Translations under genes and position numbers: made by a program
Notes under the pieces: generated by a model
What the model was told of the DNA's origin: nothing
The model's input: only the letters and a program-made list of their open reading frames with translations
Databases searched by the model: none
Assembly (NCBI GenBank): GCA_046726415.1
Contig: JBKPAK010000078.1
Location: forward strand, 1 to 13,368
Reading direction: 5' to 3'
Length of the DNA: 13,368 nt
From: Candidatus Methylomirabilota bacterium
GTDB lineage: Bacteria > Methylomirabilota > Methylomirabilia > Rokubacteriales > CSP1-6
Part shown: one piece after another, positions 1 through 13,368 of the stretch
Layout of the letters: every line of letters starts with the position of its first letter
Numbering within the stretch: position 1 is the first letter of the stretch

Positions 1-179
1 GGAAAACGGGATTCGCGTAAACCCCTGCCGCCTTCTGGAGTGAGACATCGAGGGAGCGCGACATCGAGGGCACCGCGGCTTCGCCGCGGGTCCGGGAGTG
101 GCGGGGGCTTCCTCAGCTGACCGGGACGACGACTATGGGCCTCTCCGCAGCCTGAGTGTCGCCACACACGGAGGGACGC

Positions 180-1121
180 ATGCCGCGACTGACCGAGCAG
201 GACGTCATCAAGCTCATGGACACGCTCAGCAACTGGAGGCGGTGGGGTACTGACGACGAGCTGGGCACGATCAATCACGTCACGCCGGCCGTGCGGCGGC
301 GGGCCGCGGCGCTGGTGCGCGACGGCGTGTCGGTGACCTGCGCGCGGCCAATCGTGACGAACGATATCGCCGTGGATACCACGATCCAGCCGCTGCGCTT
401 CATGGTCGACAGCGGCGAGGGGCGCGATACGGACAGCAACGACCGCGTCCTCCAGCGCCGGGGCGCCGCCGAGTTCATCGGCATGGTGTTCCACGGCTAC
501 TCGATCACCCACGTGGACGCGCCGTCGCACTACTTCTGGCAGGGCCGCATGTACAACGGCCGCTCCTGCAACCTCGTCACCTCGCGGGAGGGCGCGCAGG
601 CCGAGTCGGTGGACCTGTTGCGGGACGGCGTGGTGAGCCGTGGCGTGCTGCTCGACGTGGCCGCCGTCCGCGGCGGCGAGGTTCCGTCCGGCGAGGGCGT
701 GATGCCGGAGGACCTCGAGGCCGCCGAGCGCGCCCAGCAGGTCAAGGTGGAGCCCGGTGATGTCCTGCTGATCCGCACCGGCTACTACGCCCGCCGGCTG
801 CGCGAGCCGCGCCACCCCAGCCGCGACGGGTCTCCTGCCGCAGATGTGGCGTGTCTGCCCTGGTTCCACGAGCGCTCGATCGCTATGCTCGGCACCGACA
901 CCCACAACGACGTGAGCCCGCTACCATACCCGCGCCTGGGCAACGCACTCCATGTGGTGGCCCTGGTCGCCATGGGGCTCTGGCTCATCGACAATGCCAA
1001 CCTGGAAGAGCTGGCCCGCGCCTGCGCCGATCGCCGCCGGTGGGAGTTCCTGCTGACCATCGCGCCCTTGCGGCTCCAGCACACGACCGGCTCCCCGGTG
1101 AACCCGATTGCCGTGTTCTGA
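180..1121 (+). CDS. Cyclase family protein (kynurenine formamidase-like metal-dependent hydrolase), 313 aa
   Basis: N-terminal NWRRWGTDDELGTIN, metal-binding motif HGYSITHVDAPSH, RGVLLDV, GDVLLIRTG, and C-terminal TGSPVNPIAVF are typical of the family. Start placed at ATG 180, behind GGAGGG at 170-175. Confidence 0.9.
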   Translation: MPRLTEQDVIKLMDTLSNWRRWGTDDELGTINHVTPAVRRRAAALVRDGVSVTCARPIVTNDIAVDTTIQPLRFMVDSGEGRDTDSNDRVLQRRGAAEFIGMVFHGYSITHVDAPSHYFWQGRMYNGRSCNLVTSREGAQAESVDLLRDGVVSRGVLLDVAAVRGGEVPSGEGVMPEDLEAAERAQQVKVEPGDVLLIRTGYYARRLREPRHPSRDGSPAADVACLPWFHERSIAMLGTDTHNDVSPLPYPRLGNALHVVALVAMGLWLIDNANLEELARACADRRRWEFLLTIAPLRLQHTTGSPVNPIAVF

Positions 1122-1212
1122 ACCGTGGCCGACGCCGCAGCCCACGGGCTCACGACTTGTGGGACACTTTCCGGTAGCCGGTGATCAGCTCTCGCGCACC
1201 AGGGAGATGCGG

Positions 1213-2118
1213 ATGACGTTCGCCCCGGACCACGACGTCCCGATCCCGTACATGCAGCGCACGCGCGACTACTATCAGGCGCTCGGCTACCCCCCCTATC
1301 GCTGGGCGCACTTCGCCGACGTTCCTTTCACGCCCCTGAAGGCGCCTCTGGCGCAGGCGCGGGTGGCCCTGATCACGACGGCCGCGCCGTACCAGCCCGG
1401 TGTCGGCGACCAGGGGCCGGGGGCGAAGTACAACGCCGCCGCCAAGTTCTACAAGGTCTACTCCGACGGGACGGACACCGCGCCCGATCTGCGCATCTCG
1501 CACGTCGGCTATGACCGCGTCCACACCACCGCCGAGGATCCCAGGACCTGGTTTCCCCTGGCCCGACTTCACGATTTCGTGAAAGCGGGACGCATCGGCG
1601 CGCTCACGCCGCGGTTCCACGGCGCCCCGACGAACCGGAGCCACCGGGTGACGATGGAAACGGACGCGCCAGAACTCCTCCGCCGCTGCCGAGAAGACGG
1701 CGCAGACGTGGCGGTGCTCGTCCCCACCTGACCGGTGTGTCACCAGACCGTGAGTCTGGCGGCCAGGTATCTCGAGGCGAACGGGATCCCCACCGTGATC
1801 ATGGGATGTACAAAGGACATCGTGGAGTACTGCGGCGTCCCGCGCTTCCTGTTCAGCGACTTTCCCCTCGGCAACGCCGCCGGGCGCCCGTTCGACGTCG
1901 AATCGCAGACGGTCACCTTGGAGCTCGCGCTGCGCGTGCTGGAGAGCGCGCCCGCCGGGCGGACCACGGTACAGTCGCCGCTGCGGTGGCGTGACGACCC
2001 CTCGTGGAAGCTCGACTTCTCGAACCTCGACAAGCTGACGCCGGAGGAGATCGCCGAGCGGCGCAAGGAGTTCGACGCCGTCAAGGCTGTGGCCAAGGCG
2101 AAGCGCGAGGAAGCATGA
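1213..2118 (+). CDS. Glycine/sarcosine/betaine/D-proline reductase selenoprotein B family protein (GrdB/PrdB-like), 301 aa, predicted selenocysteine at codon 173 (TGA 1729-1731)
   Basis: ORFs 1108..1731 and 1735..2118 share a frame and are joined as GTC CCC ACC TGA CCG GTG TGT CAC CAG ACC = VPT-U-PVCHQT. Upstream motifs PFTPLKAPLAQARVALITTA, ISHVGYD, FPLARL, GRIG and downstream LEANGIPTV, GVPR, FPLG span the whole family domain. RBS AGGGAG at 1201-1206 favours ATG 1213 (ATG 1207 is an alternative). Confidence 0.85.
1732..1767 (+). promoter_or_regulatory. Candidate bacterial SECIS element
   Basis: CCAGAC (1743-1748) pairs with GTCTGG (1754-1759) around loop CGTGA. The loop follows 17 nt after the UGA and has G then U at loop positions 2-3, consistent with the bacterial SECIS consensus. 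The lower stem is imperfect. Confidence 0.65.
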
Positions 2119-3308
2119 GCAAGCCCTTCGCCGGCGTCCGGATCCTCGACTTCACCCGGTACCTCGCGGGCCCGTACGGCACCTACCAGCTGGCGCTCCT
2201 CGGCGCCGATGTCGTGAAGATCGAGTCGCGCGACGGCGACGAGACGCGCAGCCAGCTTGTCTCAAAGGAATGGGCCGAGCGGAAGATGCCGCCGTCGTTC
2301 CTGGCGGTGAACGGCAACAAGCGCAGCATCACGCTCGACCTCCGGCGGCCGGAGGCCGTGGAGGTCATCACGCGGCTGGTCACCAAGGCCGACGTGGTCT
2401 GGGAGAACTTCCGCCCGGGGGTCATGGACAAGCTCGGGGTTGGCTATGAGGCGCTCGCCGCGGTCAACCCGCGCCTCGTCTACTGCGCGGTCTCCGGCTT
2501 CGGCCACACGGGACCAGAGCGAACCACCGCCGCCTTCGACGGCAAGCTGCAGGCCATGTCCGGCATCATGTCCATCACCGGCGAGCCCGCCGGCGGCCCG
2601 ATGCGCGCCGGATTCGCGATCTGCGACACCATCGGCGGCATGACGGCGGCGCTCGCCGTGGCGAGCGCGCTCTACCAGCGCACGCACACCGGTCGCGGGC
2701 AGTTCGTGGACGTGGCCATGCTCGATGCGGCGCTGGCCTTCATCCCCGGCCCAGTCTCCGAGTACACCGTGGCCGGCATCGAACAGCGGCAGATCGGCAA
2801 CGGCTCGGTGAGCCGCAAGCCGACGGCCAGTCGCTTCCGGGCGAAAGACGGCTTCATCGTCCTGGCGGTGCTGACCGAGAAGCAGTTCGCAGGCCTCATG
2901 CGCACGATCGGGCGGGCCGACGCCCTCGACGATCCGCGCTTCAAGGACTGGGCGGCGCGGACGGACAACGTGGCGGCGCTGCGCGAGGTCATCGAGACCG
3001 CACTGGCCACCGACGATCCGAAGACTTGGGAGGCGCGGCTGACGGCGGCGGACGTCCCATGCGCCTGCATCTGGAAGATCGATGAGATCGTGCAGCATCC
3101 GCAGCTCGAGCACCGCGACGTGTTGCAGACCGTCGACTCGCGCTACGGCCCGCTGCGGCTGGTGGGGGCGGGCTTCCGGCTCGCCCACGGCAGCCCGGGC
3201 ATCGACCGGCCGCCGCCGACGCTCGGCGAGCACACCGACGAGATCCTCGCCGAAGCGGGCTACGCCCCCGCGGAGATCGAGCGCCTGCACCGCGACGCGA
3301 TCATCTGA
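2115..3308 (+). CDS. Class III CoA-transferase (CaiB/BaiF family), 397 aa
   Basis: GVRILDFTRYLAGP, LGADVVKIE, NGNKRSITLDL, ADVVWENFRPG, NPRLVYCAVSGFG, catalytic-type Asp in ICDTIGG, TGRGQFVD, PPTLGEHT. The start ATG overlaps the upstream stop (ATGA 2115-2118). Confidence 0.95.
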   Translation: MSKPFAGVRILDFTRYLAGPYGTYQLALLGADVVKIESRDGDETRSQLVSKEWAERKMPPSFLAVNGNKRSITLDLRRPEAVEVITRLVTKADVVWENFRPGVMDKLGVGYEALAAVNPRLVYCAVSGFGHTGPERTTAAFDGKLQAMSGIMSITGEPAGGPMRAGFAICDTIGGMTAALAVASALYQRTHTGRGQFVDVAMLDAALAFIPGPVSEYTVAGIEQRQIGNGSVSRKPTASRFRAKDGFIVLAVLTEKQFAGLMRTIGRADALDDPRFKDWAARTDNVAALREVIETALATDDPKTWEARLTAADVPCACIWKIDEIVQHPQLEHRDVLQTVDSRYGPLRLVGAGFRLAHGSPGIDRPPPTLGEHTDEILAEAGYAPAEIERLHRDAII

Positions 3309-3375
3309 GCCTCAGGTCCTGATACGCGCTCAGCTGAGCCTCAGGTCCTCGTGCCCGGTCATCTGAGCTTCAGAT
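3305..3375. repeat. Three palindromic CTGAGC(C/T)TCAG boxes at 29-bp periodicity
   Basis: CTGAGCCTCAGGTCCT at 3305-3320 and 3334-3349; CTGAGCTTCAG at 3363-3373, within ATCTGA-GCT-TCAGAT (3361-3375). Confidence 0.8.
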
Positions 3376-3502
3376 TCCCGTGCGGTGAGACAAACGGATG
3401 GCCCGCGATGGTCGGGGCACCTCCGGTCGACGCCCGTCCTGCCGAATCGGAGGACGCGGGGCTGGGTGTATGCTCGTCCGCACCGTTTTCGGGGGTGGCG
3501 CC

Positions 3503-4747
3503 ATGGACGACGTGAAGCAGCAGCTCGCGCGGTGGATCGACGAGGATCGCGACACGATCATCCAGTTCTTGTGCGAGTTCGTTCGCGCCAAGAGCCCGAA
3601 CCCTCCGGGCGACACCACGCTGGCGGCCGGGCACGTCACGCGTTTCCTCGAGATGCACAGGCTACCGTTCCAAGTGGTCGCGCCGCAACCCACCATGCCG
3701 AACATCGTCGGCTCCTTCGAGGGAGCGAAGCCTGGTCGGCACCTGGTGCTGAACGGTCACATGGACGTCTTTCCCGCCGACGAGGCGAACGAGCGCTGGA
3801 CGCATGGTCCGTGGAGTGGGGCGATCGCCGAAGGCAAGATCTATGGCCGCGGCGTGGCCGACATGAAGGCGGGAACGTCCGCTTCCATCTTCACCTACTA
3901 CTATCTGTACCGGGTCCGTCAGCATCTGAAGGGGAAGCTGACCTTGACCGCCGTCTCCGACGAGGAGACATTCGGGCCGTGGGGGGCGCGGTACTTGATG
4001 GATCATGCCGACGTCCACGGCGACTGCCTGCTGAACGGTGAGCCGAGTAGTCCCCTGACCATTCGCTTCGGCGAGAAGGGACCGCTCTGGCTGAAGTTCA
4101 CCGTGCGAACCAAGGGGGCACACGGCGCTTATACGCATCTGTCGCCGAGCGCGACGAAACTCGCGGCAAAGCTGATCCTCGATCTGGAGGATCTGACCGC
4201 GCTGGAGCCATCGGTGCCCATCGAGGTCGCCGACGCCCTCGCCGGCGCCGCGGCGGCCATCGACGAGGCGCAAGGCCCCGGGGCGAAGGACATCGTGCAG
4301 CGGGTCACGGTGAACATCGGCATCATCCAGGGCGGCCAGAAGGTGAACATGGTTCCCGCCACGTGCTGGTTCGAGGCCGACGTGCGTCTGCCGCCCGGCC
4401 TGGGACGGGACGAGGTGATGGCCGCGCTACGCCGGATCCTCGGCCGCTATCCCGAGGCGACCATGGAAGAGATCAACTACAGCGCGCCGAGCGCCTGCGA
4501 CCCCAATCACGAGATGGTCGGCATCGTGCGCGCCAACGCGCAGGCCTTCGGCCGGCCCGCCCCGGCGCCGATCGTGAGTCTGGGCGGTACTGACGCCCGC
4601 CTGTGGCGCCATCGCGGGATCCCCGCGTTCGTCCACGGGCCGTTCCCGCGCGGCATGGCCCAGGCGGACGAGCACGTCGAGATCGAGGAGTACCTACACA
4701 TCGTTCGCATGCACGTGCTGTCGGCGTCCGACTACCTGTCGCGCTGA
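3503..4747 (+). CDS. M20 family metallo-hydrolase (ArgE/DapE-like deacylase), 414 aa
   Basis: SPNPPG, LNGHMDV, GRGVADMKAG, SDEE, GEPS, GEKG, GAHG, VNIGIIQGG, GGTDAR, DEHV. Start set at ATG 3503; the longer N-terminus in the ORF track looks non-coding. Confidence 0.9.
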   Translation: MDDVKQQLARWIDEDRDTIIQFLCEFVRAKSPNPPGDTTLAAGHVTRFLEMHRLPFQVVAPQPTMPNIVGSFEGAKPGRHLVLNGHMDVFPADEANERWTHGPWSGAIAEGKIYGRGVADMKAGTSASIFTYYYLYRVRQHLKGKLTLTAVSDEETFGPWGARYLMDHADVHGDCLLNGEPSSPLTIRFGEKGPLWLKFTVRTKGAHGAYTHLSPSATKLAAKLILDLEDLTALEPSVPIEVADALAGAAAAIDEAQGPGAKDIVQRVTVNIGIIQGGQKVNMVPATCWFEADVRLPPGLGRDEVMAALRRILGRYPEATMEEINYSAPSACDPNHEMVGIVRANAQAFGRPAPAPIVSLGGTDARLWRHRGIPAFVHGPFPRGMAQADEHVEIEEYLHIVRMHVLSASDYLSR

Positions 4748-4860
4748 GCCGGATCGCGCTTCGCGCCGACGGAGACCTGTCGCGCGGTTCGCCGACGAGG
4801 CCGATCGCCCCCGCGATCCAGAACGCACGCCGTGCCCAGCGCCGCGTGCCGGCGGCGCAC

Positions 4861-6123
4861 TCATACCAGGCCGATGTCCTGTGCCTCCGTGTGCGGGAAC
4901 ACCTTGTCGAGCCTCGCGTTGTCGAGCCCGTACAGTCGCTTGAACAGGCCGCCGAGCATGGCGCGGTATTCGGTCAACACCGGCCAGTCCCGGTTCTGGT
5001 TCAGGGTGCGGCGCTCGACCGCGATCTGTTCGCCGGCGATGCGTCCGCCGCGGATGACGCCACCGAGCGCCCAGTAGACGGTGCCGTGGCCATGGTCGGT
5101 GCCGCGCGTGCCGTTTTCGCGGAAGGTGCGGCCGAACTCCGAGATGACCACGACGACGGTGTTGTTCCACAGCGGCCCCATCTGCTGGGCGAAGGCGGCG
5201 AGCCCCTGACCGAGGTTGCCGAGGAGATTGGCGAGTTGGCCCTGCGCGCTGCCTTCGTTGACGTGCGTATCCCACCCGCCGACATCGATGAAGGCGAGGT
5301 TGAACTTGTCGCGCATCAGCCCGGCCATCCGGCGCGCCTCGACTTCGAAGCCGCGCGCGCTGAGCGCACTGCGGTTGGCCGCCTGCATCTCCCCGTTGGT
5401 GCTGCCCGAGGCCATCATCTCGCCTTGCTGGGCGACCGTCCGGCGCAGCTCGAAGCCTTCGCTGATCAGGGGCTCGAAGCGCGTCCCCGCATACATGTCG
5501 GCCAGGAGCGCCATCTGTCGTTCGTCGAACGGCGCGCGGGCGGTGCCCTTGAGCGACACGTTGGGGACCACGACGTCACCGGTCATGGCGATCGGCAACC
5601 CGTCGGTGAAGGCCACGGGCGCCGCGGCCCCGCCGAGCACGGCGGCCAGCCGATTCATGAAACCCGATCCGTAGGCCTTCTGGCCCCCGCGCTCGACGGC
5701 CAGGGGAAGTCCGCCCTCGACGCTGTCCTGCGTCTCGAAGTGGCTGCGACTTAGGTCCCTCGTCCCGGCAAAGGTCACGAACGCAACCCGGCCTTCTCGC
5801 CAGAGGGGATAGATGCTGTCCTTCAGGGCGGGGTGCAGCCCCCACATGACCGCCTCGCCCGGCCGCGCGAGTGGTAGAGCGGTGTTCGGGTTGTTCGGAT
5901 CGGGTTTGGGCACCGCGAGGGTCGGCCGCGCCTCGTAGTAGAACGGGCTGCCCACCGGGATCACTGCATTGGCCGCATCGTAGCCGCCGCGCAGGAACAC
6001 CAGCAGGAATTTGATGTCCGCCGCCTCCGGCGCGGCGTAGGCGCGCGACACCACATGAGGGGTGGCGCCGATCGCGTGGGCGGCGCCGAACAGCGCGACC
6101 TTGAGGACGACGCGTCGCTCCAT
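4861..6123 (-). CDS. DUF1501 domain-containing protein with probable Tat signal peptide, 420 aa
   Basis: FLRGGYD, WGLHPAL, SRSHFETQD, GGWDTHVNE, SEFGRTFRENGTRGTDHGHG are characteristic. N-terminus MERRVVLKVAL has a twin arginine; GAGGT lies upstream of ATG 6123. Confidence 0.88.
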   Translation of the reverse strand: MERRVVLKVALFGAAHAIGATPHVVSRAYAAPEAADIKFLLVFLRGGYDAANAVIPVGSPFYYEARPTLAVPKPDPNNPNTALPLARPGEAVMWGLHPALKDSIYPLWREGRVAFVTFAGTRDLSRSHFETQDSVEGGLPLAVERGGQKAYGSGFMNRLAAVLGGAAAPVAFTDGLPIAMTGDVVVPNVSLKGTARAPFDERQMALLADMYAGTRFEPLISEGFELRRTVAQQGEMMASGSTNGEMQAANRSALSARGFEVEARRMAGLMRDKFNLAFIDVGGWDTHVNEGSAQGQLANLLGNLGQGLAAFAQQMGPLWNNTVVVVISEFGRTFRENGTRGTDHGHGTVYWALGGVIRGGRIAGEQIAVERRTLNQNRDWPVLTEYRAMLGGLFKRLYGLDNARLDKVFPHTEAQDIGLV

Positions 6124-6137
6124 GACCACCTCGTTCT

Positions 6138-7712
6138 TCAACGCTGCATCCAGTCCGGCGAGGCGAGCAATATGGTGTTCCACTCCTGCTGGGAGGCCGT
6201 CTGCGCGAGGGCCTCGCGCGTGCGGGCGCTCAGCGTGGGCTCGATCGCCTCGTAGAACAGCCGGTTGTTCAGCATGGGGAAGCCCGTGCGCGGGCCGGGC
6301 CGGTTGTCCTCGGTGTTGAACAGCCCCGCGCTGCCGCTGCCGATCGCGCGGGCGATCTCGAAGCGTTTCACCATCTGGCCCGAACTCGCCCAGGCCGTTT
6401 CGACCAGCGCGTAGCCATCGGGTGTCACCCGCCCATACAGCGGCTCACCGAGCTGACTGAGCCAGCCGACCACCGGTCGATAGTTGCTGATGGTCTTGCC
6501 GTCGTAGGCCAGCCGCAGCGACGAGACGACGAACTGCATCGGATCCTTGAATTTGCCGGGGCCGGCCTCCGCGCCGCTCAGCACCGCGGCGAATTCGCGC
6601 GCGGCGAACATCGTGCGCAGCACCGCCGCCACGTCGCCGTCGGTGCGCTGAAACGCCTCGGCCATGGCCTCGACCAGGGCCGGGGAAGGATCGTCGGCGA
6701 CGAAATAGGTGGCGATCTTGCGGCTGATGAAGCGGGCGGTAGCGGGCTGCCGGCACAGGAGCACCACCGCCTCCTCGACTTCCCCGAACCCCGCTCCCGC
6801 GATGCGCTGGTTCAGGACGGTCTTGGTGCCGAAGTCGTGGCGGTTGGGGTTGAACTCGAACAGACCCTCGCGCACATAGAGCGGCTGACGGGCCGGGGCG
6901 AGCTTCGGGATATCGCCCGTGACATTGATGCCGACCCCGGTGAGCACCCGGGCCAGCTCCTGGACGTCCTGCTGTGAGTAGCGCGAGCCGCTGAGGCCCC
7001 CGCTGATGCCGAGCGTGTGCAGCTCCATCAACTCGCGCGCGTAGTTTTCGTTGATGCGCCCGGCCGCGCTCTGGGCGTTGTCGAGATACTCGAGCATGGC
7101 CGGCGCCGTCGCCGTGGCCAGGACGAGCTCGCGGAACCGGCCAAGCGCGCGGGGCCGCACGGCGCGCTCCTCGTAGTCGGCCAGCGTCCAGCGCACCCCG
7201 GCTTTGCCGGAGAACACGCTGAAGTGATTCATCCAGAACCACGTCATCTGTTCGCGCAGCTGGGCCGGCGAGTAGAGCGCGCGCATCAGATGGCGCTTGG
7301 CGGTCTCGTAGCTTGCCTGATTGGCCGCCTGGTTCTGCTGCTTGCGCGCTTGCTGCTTGTCGTCCTGGCTCGGCAGGGCGTTGATGCGCTGCTGCTCGGC
7401 GCGCGCGGTGCGCAGCAGTCGCTCGGCGGTCTGCTGGGTGACGGGAATCGCGGCGATCGCCGCGGCCAGATCGGGCGGATCCTGCGCAGGGGGGTTCAGC
7501 TGCTCATCGAAAAACCGCGCTCGGCCCAGTTGGCGGTAGCGCGCGACGGTCGCGCCGTCGACGCCGAACGCAACGCGGTTGAGCCAGCGCAGATCGTCCT
7601 GAGTGAGCGGGCGCGGCGCGCGATCCGAGCTGGTCGGGCCGGTAGCGCACGCCACGAGCACCAGGGACAGCGCCGGGAGCCAGGTCCGAGTGCCGAGGGC
7701 AATTCGCATCAT
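6138..7712 (-). CDS. DUF1800 domain-containing protein, probable lipoprotein, about 524 aa
   Basis: QLREQMTWFWMNHFSV, PAMLEYLDN, INENYARELMELHTLG, YSQQDVQELARVLTG, GKFKDP, PDGY, ASPDWMQR. Lipobox-like LVAC follows a hydrophobic stretch. Start is ATG 7712 or 7709. Confidence 0.9.
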   Translation of the reverse strand: MMRIALGTRTWLPALSLVLVACATGPTSSDRAPRPLTQDDLRWLNRVAFGVDGATVARYRQLGRARFFDEQLNPPAQDPPDLAAAIAAIPVTQQTAERLLRTARAEQQRINALPSQDDKQQARKQQNQAANQASYETAKRHLMRALYSPAQLREQMTWFWMNHFSVFSGKAGVRWTLADYEERAVRPRALGRFRELVLATATAPAMLEYLDNAQSAAGRINENYARELMELHTLGISGGLSGSRYSQQDVQELARVLTGVGINVTGDIPKLAPARQPLYVREGLFEFNPNRHDFGTKTVLNQRIAGAGFGEVEEAVVLLCRQPATARFISRKIATYFVADDPSPALVEAMAEAFQRTDGDVAAVLRTMFAAREFAAVLSGAEAGPGKFKDPMQFVVSSLRLAYDGKTISNYRPVVGWLSQLGEPLYGRVTPDGYALVETAWASSGQMVKRFEIARAIGSGSAGLFNTEDNRPGPRTGFPMLNNRLFYEAIEPTLSARTREALAQTASQQEWNTILLASPDWMQR

Positions 7713-7954
7713 CCAGTGTGGCCGTCGCGGGCGGGGCGAGGACGCGTCCCGCACCGTTCCCGGCGCCCTGGCTCCCACAGGGCGGGGAACGTCGGCCGGA
7801 TCGATCGTGCGCCGGTGCGCATGGCCTGTCAAGGCCCGCGAGCAATGCCGGCGGCGCGCCGCCCAGTCTGGCGATCCCCTCGGCGCCGGGCCTCTGGTTG
7901 CAGAGGCACCTTCGCGATAAGCTTCGGCCACGTCTATCGCCGAGGAGCTGACCC

Positions 7955-8842
7955 ATGAACGTCTCCATCCGCCAGATCCACCCTGTGTTCGTGGGCGAGG
8001 TATCCGGGATCGACATCGCCGGACCGCTCGCACGCGAGGAGGTGGCGGCCATCGAGGCGGGGATGGATCGCCACGCCGTGCTCGTGTTTCGCGACCAGAA
8101 GATCACCGATGAGCAGCAGATGGCGTTCAGCCGCAACTTCGGCGCCCTGGAGGACGCCCGCGGCGGTACCATCACCAAGCCCGAGGACAAGCGACTCCGA
8201 GTGGGCATGAACGACGTCTCCAATCTCGGCCAGGATGGCCAGCCCCTCGCTCGCGCCTCCCGCCAGCGCGTGTTCAACCTGGGCAACATGCTCTGGCACT
8301 CGGACAGCTCGTTCCGGGTGATCCCCGCCAAGTATTCCCTGCTATCGCCGCGCGTGGTGAATCCGACGGGTGGGAATACCGAGTTCGCGGACATGCGCGC
8401 GGCCTATGATGCCCTCGACGCGGATGTGAAGGCGCAGATCGAGGACTTCGTGTGCGAGCACTCGCTGATGCACTCGCGTGGCTCGCTCGGCATGCTCGAT
8501 TACTCGGAAGAGGAGCGGGCGATGTTCCGGCCGGTTCGCCAGCGGCTCGTGCGGACGCACCCCGTGACCGGCCGCAAGTCGCTGTACCTCTCCTCGCATG
8601 CCGGCGGCATCATCGGCGTGCCGATGCCGGAGGCTCGAATCCTGTTGCGGGACCTTACCGAGCATGCCACCCAGCCGAAGTTCGTCTATGTCCACCGCTG
8701 GCGCCCGTGGGATCTCGTCATGTGGGACAACCGGCAGATGATGCACCGCACGCGCCGCTATGACGAGAGCCAGCCGCGCGATATGCGACGCACCACGGTC
8801 GCGGGAGACGCGCCCACCGCGGCCCAGGTCGAGGCGGCGTAG
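7955..8842 (+). CDS. TauD/TfdA family Fe(II)/2-oxoglutarate dioxygenase (TfdA-like), 295 aa
   Basis: HAVLVFRDQ, facial triad WHSDSSF ... MHR, GGNTEFAD, HPVTGRKSLY, WDNR, RDMRRTT. RBS GAGGAG upstream. Confidence 0.92.
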   Translation: MNVSIRQIHPVFVGEVSGIDIAGPLAREEVAAIEAGMDRHAVLVFRDQKITDEQQMAFSRNFGALEDARGGTITKPEDKRLRVGMNDVSNLGQDGQPLARASRQRVFNLGNMLWHSDSSFRVIPAKYSLLSPRVVNPTGGNTEFADMRAAYDALDADVKAQIEDFVCEHSLMHSRGSLGMLDYSEEERAMFRPVRQRLVRTHPVTGRKSLYLSSHAGGIIGVPMPEARILLRDLTEHATQPKFVYVHRWRPWDLVMWDNRQMMHRTRRYDESQPRDMRRTTVAGDAPTAAQVEAA

Positions 8843-8857
8843 CGTCCGAGCCCGCCA

Positions 8858-9646
8858 ATGATGACCACTGGCCGCCTGGCCGGCCGCGTGGCCATCGTCA
8901 CCGGCGCCGCCCACGGCATTGGTCGCGCCATCGGGGTGGCGCTCGTGGCGGATGGTGCCACCGTCTGGGCCTGCGACGTGCGCGAGCCCGAGCTTGCGGC
9001 GACCGGGCGCGCCTTGGAGGAGGCCGGGGGCGTCGCGGGCAAGACCGCTCGCGTCGACATCGCCGATCCCGGCCAGATTGCCGAGTTCGTCGAGCGCGTC
9101 GCGGCGGCGGATGGAGACGCCGAGATCCTCGTCAACTGCGCGGGCGGAGTGGCCGGCCAGGCGGGCCGCCCCGTCGAGGAGGTGAGCGACGAGGACTGGT
9201 ACGGCATCTTCCGCGTCAACGTCGATGCGACCTTTCGCTTCACGCGGGCCGTCGTCCTCGGCATGAAGCGCCGTGGCCGGGGCGCGATCGTCAATATCTC
9301 ATCGGGCGCTGGCCGCTCGTACAGCCGCACCGGCATCCAGGCCTACGCGAGCGCCAAGGCCGCGGTCATCGGCTTCACGCGCCAGACGGCGCGCGAGCTG
9401 GGGCGCTTCGGCATCCGCGTCAACTCGGTGGCGCCCGGCTTCGTGCTCTCGAATCCGGCCACCGAGCGGCAGTGGGCGGCCATGGGCGATGATGGCCAGC
9501 GCGAGCTGCTCGACTCGATCGCGCTCGGCCGCGTGGGTCAGCCGCAGGAGATCGCGAGCGTGGTGGCATTCCTGGTGTCGGACGGCGCGTCCTACGTCAC
9601 CGGGCAGACCCTCAGCGCCGACGGCGGCCACTGGATGCTGGGGTAG
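8858..9646 (+). CDS. Short-chain dehydrogenase/reductase (classical SDR), 262 aa
   Basis: TGAAHGIG cofactor motif, VNCAG, NISS, catalytic YASAK, GIRVNSVAPG, YVTGQTLSADGG. It lies 15 nt after the dioxygenase stop, so the two are likely co-transcribed. Confidence 0.93.
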   Translation: MMTTGRLAGRVAIVTGAAHGIGRAIGVALVADGATVWACDVREPELAATGRALEEAGGVAGKTARVDIADPGQIAEFVERVAAADGDAEILVNCAGGVAGQAGRPVEEVSDEDWYGIFRVNVDATFRFTRAVVLGMKRRGRGAIVNISSGAGRSYSRTGIQAYASAKAAVIGFTRQTARELGRFGIRVNSVAPGFVLSNPATERQWAAMGDDGQRELLDSIALGRVGQPQEIASVVAFLVSDGASYVTGQTLSADGGHWMLG

Positions 9647-9671
9647 CAGCGTGTCGGAATATCCAGAACCG

Positions 9672-9688
9672 CTCCGGCGTTCCCGGAG
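9672..9688. terminator. Small hairpin between convergent SDR and FAH genes (possible terminator/pause)
   Basis: CTCCGG-CGTTC-CCGGAG inverted repeat. There is no U-tract on either side. Confidence 0.25.
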
Positions 9689-9690
9689 AT

Positions 9691-10473
9691 CTAGCGCTCT
9701 CTCAGCACCGGGTTGCGCAACACGCCGATGCGGGGGATCTCCACCTCGACCACGTCACCATCCTTCATGTTCTCCGTCGCACCGTCGGTGCCCATCCACA
9801 GCACGTCACCCGGGTACAAGGTCAAGTATTGGCTCATGCGGCTGATGAACTGGCGCACGCCGAAGATCGCGTCCTTGACGGCGTAGGAGAACATCTCCTG
9901 GCCATTGAGCCGGATGGTGACCCGGAGATCGTCGGGATCGAGGCCGGTGACGATCCACGGACCCATCGGCTTGAAGGTGTCCGTGTTCTTTCCCCGCCAG
10001 AACGTCCGGTCACCGCGCTGCCAGGTTCGCTCGCTGACGTCATTGCCGATCGTGTAGCCGAAGACGTAGTCGAGCGCCTCGGCCTCCGAGACCCGCTTGC
10101 ACCGCCGGCCGATCACCGCGACTAGTTCCCCTTCGTACTGAACCTGCTCCGTGGCGTCCTTGGGGATGACGATGGGCTCGTCAGTCGCGACCAGCGCATT
10201 GTTGGCGCGGTAGCCGACGTCGGCGTGCGGCGGAAACTCCGGCTTCACGCCCCGGCGGTGGGCCATCTCGGTCACGTGCTCCCGGTAGTTGACGCCGGCG
10301 GCATAGAAGGTGGGGGGAATCACCGGCACGAGCAACTTGACCCGACTCAGCGGGAAGGTCGTCGCGGTCTGCCGATGCTCCTCGAAAGGACTCCCCGTGA
10401 CTTCGGTCACGGTGTTGTCCTCGATGACGCCGTACGCGGCGTTCCGCCCTGATTGAAACCGGCACCATTTCAT
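9691..10473 (-). CDS. Fumarylacetoacetate hydrolase family protein, 260 aa
   Basis: GVNYREH, YEGELVAVIG, GYTIGNDVSERTWQ, GKNTDTFKPMGPWI, TLYPGDVLWMGT, IGVLRNPV. The start overlaps the upstream hydrolase stop (10470-10473). Confidence 0.93.
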   Translation of the reverse strand: MKWCRFQSGRNAAYGVIEDNTVTEVTGSPFEEHRQTATTFPLSRVKLLVPVIPPTFYAAGVNYREHVTEMAHRRGVKPEFPPHADVGYRANNALVATDEPIVIPKDATEQVQYEGELVAVIGRRCKRVSEAEALDYVFGYTIGNDVSERTWQRGDRTFWRGKNTDTFKPMGPWIVTGLDPDDLRVTIRLNGQEMFSYAVKDAIFGVRQFISRMSQYLTLYPGDVLWMGTDGATENMKDGDVVEVEIPRIGVLRNPVLRER

Positions 10474-11252
10474 GGCCGATGCTCCTTGAGAAAACCGCCC
10501 ACTTCGCGGTTGAACACGTGAGGACGCTCGAAGTACGTCGAGTGGCCGGCGGCCTCGACGCGCACGAGGCGTGAGCCCGGGACCTGCTCGTGGACCTTCT
10601 TCGACAGCTCGGGCCAGGTAAGTCCGTCCTCGTCACTGGTCAGGAAGAGCGTCGGTACCCGGGCGGCGGCGTAGCGTTCCACGGGTGTGGTCAGGCGGCC
10701 AAGATGATCGCGGAAGTCGGCGGGCAGCGGCGCGTTCGTGCCGGCGATTTGAGCGTAGAGGAAGGCTCGGACCGGCTGCTCCTTGCGGAAGGTCTCGCCC
10801 AAGGCCGCGTGCCACAGCACGGCCGGCCGGGGTGGACTCGTCGCGCCGAGCTGCCGGCGCAGCTCGGCGATCTCGAGATTGGTGAGGTTGCCGACCGTGT
10901 TTGCCATCACGACCGCCCAGAATCGCTCGGGCACCCGCACGACGGCGCCCACGGCGGCCCAGCCGCCCATCGACTGTGCGACCAGAGCCGCCTTCGCGAT
11001 CCCCAGGTGATCGAGCAACGCGATCGCGTCGGTCGCGAGCGCGGCGGGACCCGGCCCGCCCGCCACGTCCGGGGACTGGCCGAAGGCACGCTGGTCCACC
11101 GTGATGCACCGGTACTCCTCGGCGAACACGGGCACCTGCTGCCACCAGCTCAGATGGTTGCCGCCGGCGCCGTGCAGAAACAGCAGCGTGGGCGCGGTGC
11201 CGCCGGTGTCCTCGTAGTAGAGGCGAAAGCCGCTCTGCTCCATAAAAGGCAT
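10470..11252 (-). CDS. Alpha/beta fold hydrolase, 260 aa
   Basis: LFLHGAGG oxyanion motif, DQRAFGQS, nucleophile elbow AQSMGG, acid in SDEDG, His in AAGHS. Start set at ATG 11252, behind GGGGGA. Confidence 0.9.
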   Translation of the reverse strand: MPFMEQSGFRLYYEDTGGTAPTLLFLHGAGGNHLSWWQQVPVFAEEYRCITVDQRAFGQSPDVAGGPGPAALATDAIALLDHLGIAKAALVAQSMGGWAAVGAVVRVPERFWAVVMANTVGNLTNLEIAELRRQLGATSPPRPAVLWHAALGETFRKEQPVRAFLYAQIAGTNAPLPADFRDHLGRLTTPVERYAAARVPTLFLTSDEDGLTWPELSKKVHEQVPGSRLVRVEAAGHSTYFERPHVFNREVGGFLKEHRP

Positions 11253-11256
11253 CGCG

Positions 11257-11508
11257 CTATCCCCCGACCACGCCGCAGATCGCCGCCTCGATGATCTCGA
11301 GGGGGCGGTCGATCTCGGCGCGGAAAATGTTGACATCGACCTCGCCGCGTCGCCTGCCAACACCATACGCCGAGTCGGGGTCGGCCGGCGAGACCTTGCC
11401 GAGGCCCACGCCGCGCAGCGCGAGCCGGATCGCCGCCCAGGATCGCATCGAATCCGACGGGCGGGCAGCCTCGTGAGGCGGGCCGTACCGTGGGTGTTGA
11501 AGTTCCAT
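11257..11508 (-). pseudogene. Short ORF (83 aa) or C-terminal gene remnant upstream of the hydrolase
   Basis: The last about 60 codons are mostly G/C-ending and stop 4 nt before the hydrolase ATG. The tail NIFRAEIDRPLEIIEAAI resembles by eye the last helix of class III PLP aminotransferases. The 5' boundary is uncertain. Confidence 0.3.
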
Positions 11509-11616
11509 GACCAAGGCTTCGCCCGGGATGTTCCCCAACGCAGGCGTATACTCGGCCCCGCGCCAGGGTGGGCCGGTGCCGTCGATCATGACATCAGGGC
11601 ACGGGAGGGAGCGACC

Positions 11617-12711
11617 ATGAATACGCCACACGCGATCTCCGCGTTGATTCACGATCGACTGGGCCGGACCTTGAGCGATGTATTTGCGGCGAACGGAACG
11701 ACCGGCGACATCTTCAGCATCCGCCTGGAGCCGGGAGACACTCTGTTGGGCCAGCTGGAAGCGACCGACGATGGTCCACCGAGAGTCACCCTCGAGCTGG
11801 TCCTGGACGTCATCGACAGTTCCCTCTCGACGTTGCCGGATGTCCTCGAGCGGGGCGTGCGAGCGCCTGGCGAGTTCCTGCGGAACGCGCGCAACCTTCT
11901 GAGGGACCGGCTGGTCTTTTTCGGCCAGCATACCGACGACATTGCCACCCTGGTGGCCGCCGAGGATCCGGCCAGCATCCGCCGCGCCGGCGACGCGCTG
12001 TTCACGAGAATCGACGCCGCCTTCGGACGGACGGACCGGAGCGACGTATTCCAGAGTATGGGTCAATGGCTGAGGCTACGGCCATTCATCGGAGGTGACA
12101 TCGGCACGGTCCTGCCATTGGCCACCCTCGTCAGCGCGGTACAGGGCCGTCTCGAGAATGCCATTCGCGTACCGCAGAGCATCGAGCTAGGGCTGCTCGA
12201 CTATTTCTTCAAGAGCAGTGGATTCCGGACTGTTGACGGGGCGAGCGTGGTCGCCCCCGTACACCTCTCGCACCTCGGGAACGCGCGGTCAGGCCGGGGT
12301 TCTGAACTGTCGAACGATCCGGCCGGGCTTCGACCGCTCACGGGCTTCATCGCGAAGGCGACCGCTGAGCACTACATACGGGACATCACCCGGGTCATCG
12401 TGGAGAGCGCGTACGATGCGGGACGCGGGCTGCGCGCGCGATTCGACGACATCGCGCCGCGGTTGAGGCGCCGCAAGCCCGATCAGGGGGCGCAGGCCGC
12501 GATCGTGGAGAAGTTCGTGGCGTGGTTCAGAGGCTTTTCGGCCATGGCGGAGTCGGGAACGATGCGGGCCGTCGAGGTGGCGACGCAGGGAGTGTCGCAA
12601 TTTCAGACCAACCCCCTGATCGCCGCCGCGTCGGGCTCTTTCGCGGGCACCGTGGCTCGCAAACTCGCGCAGGATTCCTTCCTGGCCGTGTTGCGCTCCG
12701 AGCTGGACTAG
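11617..12711 (+). CDS. Hypothetical protein, 364 aa, no family recognised
   Basis: Strong RBS (GGGAGGGAG) before ATG 11617, long open frame with natural amphipathic-helix-like composition, TAG at 12709-12711. Confidence 0.7.
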   Translation: MNTPHAISALIHDRLGRTLSDVFAANGTTGDIFSIRLEPGDTLLGQLEATDDGPPRVTLELVLDVIDSSLSTLPDVLERGVRAPGEFLRNARNLLRDRLVFFGQHTDDIATLVAAEDPASIRRAGDALFTRIDAAFGRTDRSDVFQSMGQWLRLRPFIGGDIGTVLPLATLVSAVQGRLENAIRVPQSIELGLLDYFFKSSGFRTVDGASVVAPVHLSHLGNARSGRGSELSNDPAGLRPLTGFIAKATAEHYIRDITRVIVESAYDAGRGLRARFDDIAPRLRRRKPDQGAQAAIVEKFVAWFRGFSAMAESGTMRAVEVATQGVSQFQTNPLIAAASGSFAGTVARKLAQDSFLAVLRSELD

Positions 12712-12717
12712 CCGAGG

Positions 12718-12937
12718 ATCTGCGGTGCGCGCCCACTGCGGGTTCTTCCTATCCGGCGAGAACCCCAGCTGCGGGTTCTTCCGCATCCTGCGAGAGCCCA
12801 ACCCGCAGGTTCGTCGATATCCTGCGAGAGCCCAACCCGCAGGTTCGTCGATACCCTGCGGGAGCCCAACCCGCAGGTTCGTCGATATCCTGCGAGAGCC
12901 CAACCCGCAGGTTCGTTCCTCCGAGGGCCCAACCGGC
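12718..12937. repeat. Tandem array of a 34-bp hairpin-forming unit (4 near-identical and about 3 degenerate copies)
   Basis: Unit ATCCTGCGAGAGCCCAACCCGCAGGTTCGTCGAT starts at 12785, 12819, 12853 (2 substitutions) and 12887 (truncated at 12916). Degenerate copies start at 12718, 12751 and 12917. Internal inverted repeat CCTGCG...CGCAGG. Confidence 0.93.
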
Positions 12938-13243
12938 GCCCCGGCACCGTTTCGCAACGAAACGCGCGTTCCCTTCCGAAACGGGCGCGTGGTGGAGGGC
13001 CCGCAACCATGCGGAAACGCACGGTCTGGGCTGGCACCGAAGTTGAGTGCGCATTGGCTGCCGTTCAACACGCGCGCCGCGCGCCACAGAAAGGATTCGA
13101 GCGAGCGGCGAGCTCAGGGAACCTCGGTTCGCTGCAGCGCGTCACGAATGGACCCGCAATCGCGCCGGGCGCGAGAGATCACTTGCCTATCGGGGCGTGA
13201 TCGCGGGATATTTCCAGCACCGTAACTCGTCGGAGGAACCGCT

Positions 13244-13368
13244 ATGGCACGCTTGACGATCAACGGCAGATCTCTCGAGGTCGACGTCAATCCCGCGACA
13301 CCCCTACTGTGGGCGATCCGAGAACAGGTCGGCCTCACCGGCACCAAGTACGGCTGCGGCATCGCGCA
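13244..13368 (+). CDS. (2Fe-2S)-binding small subunit of a xanthine-oxidase-family molybdoenzyme (CoxS/IorA-like), truncated by window end
   Basis: Not in the ORF track. It translates as MARLTINGRSLEVDVNPATPLLWAIREQVGLTGTKYGCGIA, with the TPLLW and GLTGTKYGCG motifs. RBS GGAGGA at 13232-13237. Confidence 0.92.
   Translation, partial: MARLTINGRSLEVDVNPATPLLWAIREQVGLTGTKYGCGIA

Follow-up and report, generated by a model that had tools for sequence, protein, structure and literature searches.

A probable UxxC selenoprotein gene of the GRDB/PrdB superfamily with a SECIS-like hairpin in a Candidatus Methylomirabilota contig

Introduction

The closest described systems to the gene studied here are the selenoproteins that carry selenocysteine (Sec) in a UxxC motif, as GrdB and D-proline reductase do according to excerpts of a 2026 review (PMC13188914). 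In excerpts of a Sargasso Sea survey, "proline reductase (PrdB)", with the UxxC motif and 42 genes, ranked third in abundance among the selenoprotein families (PMC1088965). Excerpts of the Global Ocean Sampling (GOS) survey assigned the PrdB family to pfam07355, with a UxxC motif, 235 selenoproteins and 110 Cys homologues, and placed it in the top three families in many samples (PMC2398784). "Proline reductase" was also among the selenoproteins of Anaeromyxobacter and Geobacter in the part seen of a 2006 comparative study (PMC1794560), and a Methylomirabilota metagenome-assembled genome (MAG) was predicted to have 63 selenoprotein genes in the 2026 review. We analysed a stretch of 13,368 nucleotides from Candidatus Methylomirabilota bacterium (assembly GCA_046726415.1, contig JBKPAK010000078.1, positions 1 to 13,368, called the window below), in which a PrdB-like gene at 1213-2118 is interrupted by an in-frame TGA that is very probably read as Sec.

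The element of E. coli fdhF is an example of a bacterial selenocysteine insertion sequence (SECIS). Such elements lie directly after the UGA and have a small apical loop with a G, as described in an excerpt of the Sargasso Sea survey (PMC1088965). The function of the PrdB family was not found addressed in the excerpts of PMC1088965, PMC2398784, PMC1794560 and PMC13188914, and the main texts of BSepDB (PMC13326102) and deep-Sep (PMC12013277) did not mention PrdB or proline reductase. Our literature search returned no paper calling such a stand-alone family "PrdB-like" or "PrdB homolog"; its matches concerned fluoroacetate metabolism in Synergistota.

Results

The region from 1213 to 2118 of the forward strand was read as one frame, from the ATG at 1213-1215 to a terminal TGA at 2116-2118, in which the sole internal stop is the TGA at 1729-1731 (codon 173). 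The product of read-through is 301 aa long with position 173 at this TGA, whose context is ...DVAVLVPT-TGA-PVCHQTVSLAARYLE, reading VPT-TGA-PVCHQTVSL. Translation table 11 splits the frame into two open reading frames (ORFs), 1108..1731 and 1735..2118, which carry the 172-aa and 127-aa pieces of the 301-aa protein. The earlier note on this DNA, made from the letters alone, had claimed that two ORFs of the same frame are joined across the TGA, that codon usage is coding-like on both sides and that no evident ribosome-binding site serves an independent downstream start, and all of this held: the frame is single, the G+C content at third codon positions (GC3) kept one phase and a value of 0.82-0.90 in all 180-nt segments between 1261 and 2160, undisturbed by TGA 1729, and a reading of the sequence found no purine-rich or Shine-Dalgarno-like stretch before GTG 1735, whereas GGGAG precedes ATG 1213. 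The start at ATG 1213 was backed by relatives, of whose 120 best N-terminal matches 69 are exactly 172 aa long, the commonest N-termini being MTFAP[DE]HDVPIP. The region 1213-2118 is a single gene.

The read-through protein was searched within a length band of 165-527 aa, which gave at least 8000 candidates, all at E up to 0.001, and the 120 best were examined. These full-length homologues of 297-342 aa align over 98-100% of the query with 60-76% identity, the best full-length Cys form among the matches listed having 76% overall identity. A cysteine occupies the TGA column in all 120 (CP[VI]CH); the motif is P-x-C-P-x-C-H-Q in 117, A-N-C-P-V-C-H-Q in two and C-P-V-C-H-K in one, and positions C173, P174, C176, H177 and Q178 are invariant in alignment A1, which holds 28 homologues and the query (29 sequences). 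The joined frame is more than chance, since single-chain homologues align with 98-100% of it and the TGA takes the place of an invariant Cys.

A search with the N-terminal 172 residues, within a band of 94-301 aa, returned 5361 matches at E up to 1e-10. The best 120 of these, which are 83-99% identical to the query and 167-228 aa long, all terminate in ...LVP[S/T/N], one residue short of the TGA column, and the fragments ending there are named "PrdB" in some cases and "hypothetical protein" in others. The Cys forms, mostly of 308-313 aa, lie outside this length band, so the comparison with them rests on the full-length search. Two expectations of the earlier note were thereby borne out, namely that the aligned column would be Cys or Sec and that gene callers break such genes at the TGA.

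Species-representative genomes were scanned with the pattern L-V-P-x-[TRR]-P-x-C-H-Q, with TAA, TAG, TGA and TGG all permitted at the column. The scan gave at least 120 loci, and among the matches listed the codon was TGA in 120/120, all of which read as members of the family. The loci listed include Candidatus Rokuibacteriota, Methylomirabilia, Binatia, Reyranella and the cultured Enhydrobacter aerosaccus ATCC 27094, as well as Acidimicrobiia, Myxococcota, Dehalococcoidia, Acidobacteriota, Pseudomonadales, Verrucomicrobiota and others, with marine MAGs among them. The genome of the window was not among the loci listed, the closest of which was one of Candidatus Rokuibacteriota (L052), with its two halves 77% and 79% identical, followed by one of Methylomirabilia (L025).

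Two side observations were made on these loci. One Pseudomonadales MAG has two different TGA-form paralogues on two contigs (L019 and L077). A subfamily of TGA forms with the motif U-P-[F/M]-C-H-Q has 79-95 residues after the Sec position rather than the usual ~125-135 (loci L010, L011, L013, L034, L037, L042, L069, L071, L105, L112 and L119).

We compared selection on the two sides of the TGA between the window and nine relatives, with the 12 hairpin codons (see below) excluded. Downstream of the TGA, the nonsynonymous rate (dN) was 0.14-0.39 and the synonymous rate (dS) 0.66-1.03, with dN/dS of 0.13-0.50 (0.13-0.34 without the outlier L063), while upstream of it the values were 0.095-0.28, 0.72-1.30 and 0.09-0.38, respectively (dN/dS 0.21-0.38 without L063, 25 codons upstream). 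These values indicate that the downstream half is translated and that purifying selection acts on it as on the upstream half.

A sequencing error at the TGA, or a recent TGY-to-TGA nonsense mutation, would make the locus a misread Cys-form gene or a pseudogene, and this explanation has in its favour that a single base change from TGC or TGT suffices and that full-length Cys forms are numerous. However, all of the 120 best N-terminal matches stop at the same place and all of the 120 loci listed, from many phyla, have TGA there, while the downstream frame is intact and under purifying selection and the synonymous sites around the hairpin are constrained. We regard an error or a pseudogene as very improbable and close to refuted.

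A hairpin begins 10 nt after TGA 1729-1731. Its lower stem pairs 1739-1741 with 1761-1763 and its upper stem 1743-1748 with 1754-1759, around an apical loop CGUGA at 1749-1753. The segment 1739-1763 folds as.(((.((((((.....)))))).))). with an energy of -12.6 kcal/mol and a z of -2.81, which was equalled by 3/200 shuffles of the 27-nt stretch. In the RNA alignment A2, made of the 63 nt from the TGA of the window and 119 loci (L024, with 41 nt only, was omitted), RNAalifold predicted a 6-bp stem of columns 15-20 with 26-31, in which three pairs are kept through double changes: pair 15:31 is CG in 57 sequences, UA in 50, UG in 2 and unpaired in 11, pair 19:27 is AU in 74, UA in 33, UG in 4 and unpaired in 9, and pair 18:28 is GC in 109, GU in 6, AU in 4 and unpaired in 1. 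G1750 is the invariant G of alignment column 22 and is followed by a nearly invariant U at column 23 (+22/+23).

Comparison of the 11-pair structure with displaced and shuffled controls showed that 85.6% of its cells are paired, against 26.9-35.0% when the 3' partner was slid by 1-3 columns and a mean of 80.4% in shuffles, none of which (0/500) reached 85.6%. The covariation score was 0.216 against 0.125 in the shuffles, also reached by 0/500, and the number of pairs with any double change was four, which is not unusual (183/500 shuffles reach that number). The terminal UGA at 2116-2118 has no such hairpin, and the two Cys-form genes on Roseomonas and Haematobacter plasmids do not form one. 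With the caveats given in the Discussion, the predicted element at 1739-1763 resembles a bacterial SECIS in where it lies and how it folds, its small apical loop carrying a conserved G. A search of the whole window against Rfam at E up to 10 gave four weak chance matches (DicF, two CRISPR repeats and BTH_s19), none of them near the TGA. As a separate observation, the Cys form of the Roseomonas haemaphysalidis plasmid (L121, 7968-8876) is convergent with an annotated protein adenylyltransferase SelO at 8881-10353 on the minus strand, 5 nt away.

Codon usage at the hairpin was compared, in 121 genes, with a background drawn from the other parts of these genes, a control that is free of the caveats of kinship, search pattern and conserved His-Gln and Leu codons. 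Ser181 was encoded by AGT in 62/63 genes, against 6.5% AGT among 1150 background Ser codons, and Gly181 (n=57) by GGA in 33, GGT in 18, GGG in 5 and GGC in 1, against a background of 56% GGC. Leu182 was CTG in 111 genes and TTG in 10 (121/121 CTG or TTG), with no CTC, which makes up 38% of the background, and Thr179 was ACC in 73 and ACG in 3, with ACG at 40% of the background. Codon 181 varies at its third base together with the first base of codon 179: ACC is accompanied by AGT and TCC by GGA. Residue 180, whose codon supplies the G and U of the loop, was Val in 120/121 TGA forms, while in 117 Cys forms it was C in 54, I in 28, V in 18, S in 10, A in 5 and T in 2. The putative SECIS element thus appears to dictate amino acid 180 (window 1747-1755, columns 22-23).

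Two separately translated polypeptides, a 172-aa N-terminal half and a 127-aa half initiated at GTG 1735, could also be proposed, as this GTG lies only 3 nt after the TGA and gene callers do yield such pieces (P0289, P0304 and P0351 begin at query residue 175). The break would however divide the UxxC/CxxC motif, and all Cys forms have this motif on a single chain; the GTG lacks a Shine-Dalgarno-like stretch, codon 175 need not be a start in relatives (GTC 64, GTT 12, GTA 9, TTC 3 and CTC 1), and the conserved hairpin would be left without a role. A split gene is extremely improbable.

Read-through that uses no selenium was considered as well, whether through a near-cognate tRNA for Trp or Cys or through reassignment of the code. 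The stops of the 11 genes of the window are TGA in 7 and TAG in 4, and the family matches of the genes ended by TGA run near the gene ends, so TGA is not reassigned. Reading of the whole window with TGA as U gave meaningless giant frames, TGA being the main stop of the window, and no second selenoprotein candidate. The aligned residue is Cys and never Trp or Gly, no TGG form was found among the at least 120 loci, and the hairpin has the place, shape and conserved loop G given for bacterial SECIS elements in the excerpt of PMC1088965. Such selenium-free decoding has a very small chance of being correct.

The distribution of Sec and Cys forms was examined on a tree of 129 rows, comprising 67 TGA forms, every second of the 120 Cys matches and the 2 plasmid forms. 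The TGA forms were those with at least 140 aa before and at least 100 aa after the stop, which left out 54/121, among them the short-tailed P[F/M]CHQ subfamily and loci with 300-nt flanks. Parsimony gave five Sec/Cys changes, at least two of which are forced by well-supported branches, and the window grouped with L025, L052 and five Cys forms with a support of 97. Because the Cys sample is biased towards the nearest relatives of the window, no direction of change was drawn.

The family of the product was assessed with curated profiles. The read-through protein matched Pfam GRDB (PF07355) with 28.2 bits, above the gathering score of 22, over residues 32-172, corresponding to profile positions 209-347 of 347, and the match stops directly before the TGA. 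The best NCBIfam match was PrdB (TIGR04483; E 8.1e-27, residues 39-260, 216/238 profile positions), which failed with 94.2 bits against a cut-off of 300. The GrdB/GrdF/GrdH models TIGR01917, NF040794 and NF040795 failed with 40.3, 41.8 and 34.8 bits against 602.2, 800 and 775, respectively, and the subfamily of glycine/betaine/sarcosine/D-proline reductase selenoprotein B (TIGR01918) failed with 37.7 bits against 65.45. The search against PF07355 that the earlier note had suggested thus placed the protein above the gathering score with a match ending at residue 172, and its description of a GrdB/PrdB-like gene stands, qualified by the scores below the curated PrdB and GrdB cut-offs. By these models, the 301-aa product is classed as a member of the GRDB/PrdB superfamily and not as a true PrdB or GrdB.

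An AlphaFold2 (AF2) model built on alignment A1 had a mean predicted local distance difference test (pLDDT) score of 79.5 and a predicted template modelling (pTM) score of 0.85, with a strand at 166-170, U173 in a loop and a helix at 176-189. In this model Sec173 and Cys176 would occupy the connection from a beta-strand to the beginning of a helix, where redox pairs are usually found, and the two residues probably form a redox-active pair. The PDB gave 0 matches both to the sequence profile at E up to 0.01 and, in a Foldseek comparison at E up to 0.001, to the AF2 model; the best query-normalised TM-scores of that comparison were ~0.3.

The other genes of the window are listed with the elements described above in Table 1. 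The terminal TGA of the selenoprotein gene (2116-2118) overlaps the ATG (2115) of the next gene, which encodes a family III coenzyme A (CoA)-transferase, in an ATGA arrangement, and this enzyme is probably a co-translated partner. Of 73 loci with at least 2 kb of downstream DNA, 11 have a CoA-transferase III as the next gene downstream in the same orientation, and all 11 belong to the subfamily of the window; they comprise the Rokuibacteriota/Methylomirabilia and Reyranella/Enhydrobacter groups, and four of them have the ATGA overlap of the window. Locus L067 has an identity similar to that of these loci, yet has no CoA-transferase neighbour. In the Reyranella/Enhydrobacter group (L072 and L009) the pair adjoins an oligopeptide-type ATP-binding cassette (ABC) transporter, with a family-5 solute-binding protein, a permease and a double ATPase. 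The recurrent neighbours in other subfamilies were acyl-CoA dehydrogenase (12 loci), SDR (11) and enoyl-CoA hydratase (10), which are weak evidence because these families are common in such genomes.

Table 1. Genes and elements in the 13,368-nt window
Feature	Position	Strand	Evidence
Putative cyclase family (PF04199), possible operon member	156..1121	+	Pfam
GGGAG, likely ribosome-binding site, 6 nt before ATG 1213	1202..1206	+	sequence reading, inference
PrdB-like (PF07355) probable selenoprotein gene, 301 aa, U173-P-V-C176	1213..2118	+	homology, conserved TGA, selection, GC3
In-frame TGA, very probably read as Sec173	1729..1731	+	Cys column in homologues, TGA in relatives
Bacterial SECIS-like hairpin	1739..1763	+	fold energy, compensatory pairs, codon bias
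Family III CoA-transferase (PF02515, E 1.8e-115), below every equivalog cut-off	2115..3308	+	Pfam, NCBIfam
M20 (ArgE/DapE-type) deacylase, possible operon member	3398..4747	+	Pfam, NCBIfam
DUF1501	4861-6183	-	family match
DUF1800	6138-8033	-	family match
TauD	7955-8842	+	family match
SDR	8858-9646	+	family match
FAA hydrolase	9691-10473	-	family match
Alpha/beta hydrolase	10470-11366	-	family match
ORF, 412 aa, no family	11473-12711	+	GC3 suggests coding 11701-12601

The cyclase-family and M20 genes were considered as conserved partners and dropped, as neither had a tblastn match in any locus. The 412-aa ORF matched nothing in Pfam (E up to 0.001) or NCBIfam (E up to 0.01). The ORFs of the DUF1501/DUF1800 pair overlap by 46 nt.

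Fusions of the family were surveyed in 30 homologues of 528-2000 aa (P0244 and P0393-P0419). An N-terminal AMP-forming acyl-CoA synthetase is fused to a C-terminal PrdB-like part in 18/30, a CoA-transferase III is fused at the C-terminus in 3/30, and 4/30 have a C-terminal domain of the fructosamine-kinase/APH type. All fused homologues in which the motif could be found are Cys forms (CPVCH). The fusions are stronger evidence for a link to CoA than the common neighbour families.

These neighbours and fusions also bear on whether the gene encodes a genuine PrdB or GrdB-type subunit whose pyruvoyl partner (PrdA or GrdE) is encoded elsewhere. The best NCBIfam match is to PrdB, several relatives are named PrdB by the Joint Genome Institute (JGI), and excerpts of the surveys file a family with the same motif and Pfam domain as "proline reductase PrdB". 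However, the match falls far short of the PrdB cut-off and those to GrdB, GrdF, GrdH and TIGR01918 are far below theirs, the genes of the window include no PrdA, PrdC, GrdE, GrdA, GrdC or GrdD, no family is common to more than 16 of the 81 loci whose neighbours within 6 kb were compared, and the neighbours and fusions found are CoA-activating enzymes. The hosts Reyranella, Enhydrobacter and Acidimicrobiia, which we take to be aerobes, were also counted against it. There is only a slight chance that the gene encodes such a subunit.

Discussion

The TGA at 1729-1731 is very probably Sec173 of a 301-aa protein, as the earlier note had proposed, because it falls on a Cys column, is conserved as TGA in relatives, is followed by a hairpin with codon bias and lies upstream of sequence under purifying selection. 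The explanation that best fits the whole, to which we give a probability of about 0.9, is one gene whose UGA is read as Sec through a SECIS hairpin to make a product of the GRDB/PrdB superfamily.

Under this explanation, the hairpin at 1739-1763 would act as the SECIS, recruiting SelB with Sec-tRNA(Sec) to the ribosome by the mechanism established in bacteria, and the terminal UGA, which has no hairpin, would end translation. In line with what has been proposed for PrdB and GrdB, the selenol of Sec173 may then attack the substrate, and Cys176 may resolve the adduct by forming a selenenyl-sulfide. The enzyme would be neither a D-proline nor a glycine reductase, with no adjacent pyruvoyl subunit, and its substrate might be a carboxylic acid that the CoA-transferase of the overlapping gene handles in the form of a CoA thioester.

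Several observations weigh against this explanation. The 62-nt stretch after the TGA is no better folded than shuffles (z -0.15), only the 27-nt hairpin standing out, and the shuffle control of the alignment overstates significance because the sequences are related. The search pattern had fixed columns 1-18 of the RNA alignment, and conserved His-Gln and Leu codons by themselves account for some of the stem pairing (CAYCAG with CTG). The hairpin is not recognised by any Rfam family, and the Cys-form control consists of two sequences from a plasmid collection. The window has no tRNA, and none of the 11 tRNAs in all of the locus flanks is a tRNA-Sec. As to the substrate, the link to CoA comes only from gene neighbourhood and fusions; genes of CoA metabolism are frequent in these genomes, and conservation of the adjacent CoA-transferase is confined to the subfamily of the window.

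A link of the enzyme to a CoA-activated substrate is therefore a tentative suggestion from the gene order and fusions. A broader reading, to which we give a rather low probability, is that the widespread "PrdB" of environmental and aerobic bacteria is a stand-alone selenol/thiol enzyme that is no proline reductase, requires no pyruvoyl subunit and acts on CoA-activated carboxylic acids. Such an enzyme could, for instance, reductively cleave a bond adjacent to the carbonyl of the thioester, and it would be fed by the translationally coupled CoA-transferase III or, in other lineages, by the fused AMP-forming acyl-CoA synthetase. If true, this would be a new selenium-dependent reaction in aerobic carbon metabolism.

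For annotation, the gene and thousands of its relatives are stored as truncated "PrdB" or "hypothetical" fragments, and read-through would restore a complete enzyme and add a selenoprotein to the list of the organism. The locus is also a clear example of a putative SECIS constraining both codon choice and an amino acid, Val180 being fixed in Sec forms and free in Cys forms. According to the excerpts of two surveys the family ranks with the most abundant selenoprotein families of environmental samples, yet it is named after a clostridial enzyme whose defining features are absent, and the pairing with CoA-transferase and the fusions with acyl-CoA synthetase offer a testable lead to the substrate and function of this misnamed family.

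Comparison with known systems

Comparison with clostridial PrdB (TIGR04483), the 26-kDa Sec subunit of D-proline reductase, showed a homologous core of similar size with Sec in a UxxC motif. The window protein differs in having ~39 extra N-terminal and ~40 extra C-terminal residues, and prdA and prdC are not nearby; the neighbours are instead a CoA-transferase, a cyclase-family protein and an M20 deacylase. The UxxC motif is also common to GrdB, GrdF and GrdH, and the Pfam GRDB match ends exactly before the Sec of the window. The profiles of these three proteins have ~430 positions, of which the 301-aa window protein matches the C-terminal half only (213-422), the N-terminal half being absent; its scores are 35-42 bits against cut-offs of 602-800, and grdA, grdC, grdD and grdE are not in the window.

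The hairpin of the window agrees with the excerpted description of bacterial SECIS elements (PMC1088965) in following the UGA immediately, within the coding sequence, and in the conserved G of its small apical loop. It differs from them in that no Rfam model fits it; being built from the codons of H-Q-T/S-V-S/G-L, its sequence would be specific to the family.

The "PrdB" family of the surveys shares with the window protein the UxxC motif, PF07355, the existence of Sec and Cys forms and an occurrence in many non-clostridial bacteria, including marine ones. In the excerpts it was treated as a proline reductase, whereas the window protein fails the PrdB tests. By label, motif and Pfam domain only, the family of the window matches this survey family. 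A selenoprotein family sharing that label, motif and Pfam domain was published as early as 2005, so the selenoprotein of the window is an ordinary one, and the gene is another member of that family, which will not surprise a specialist.

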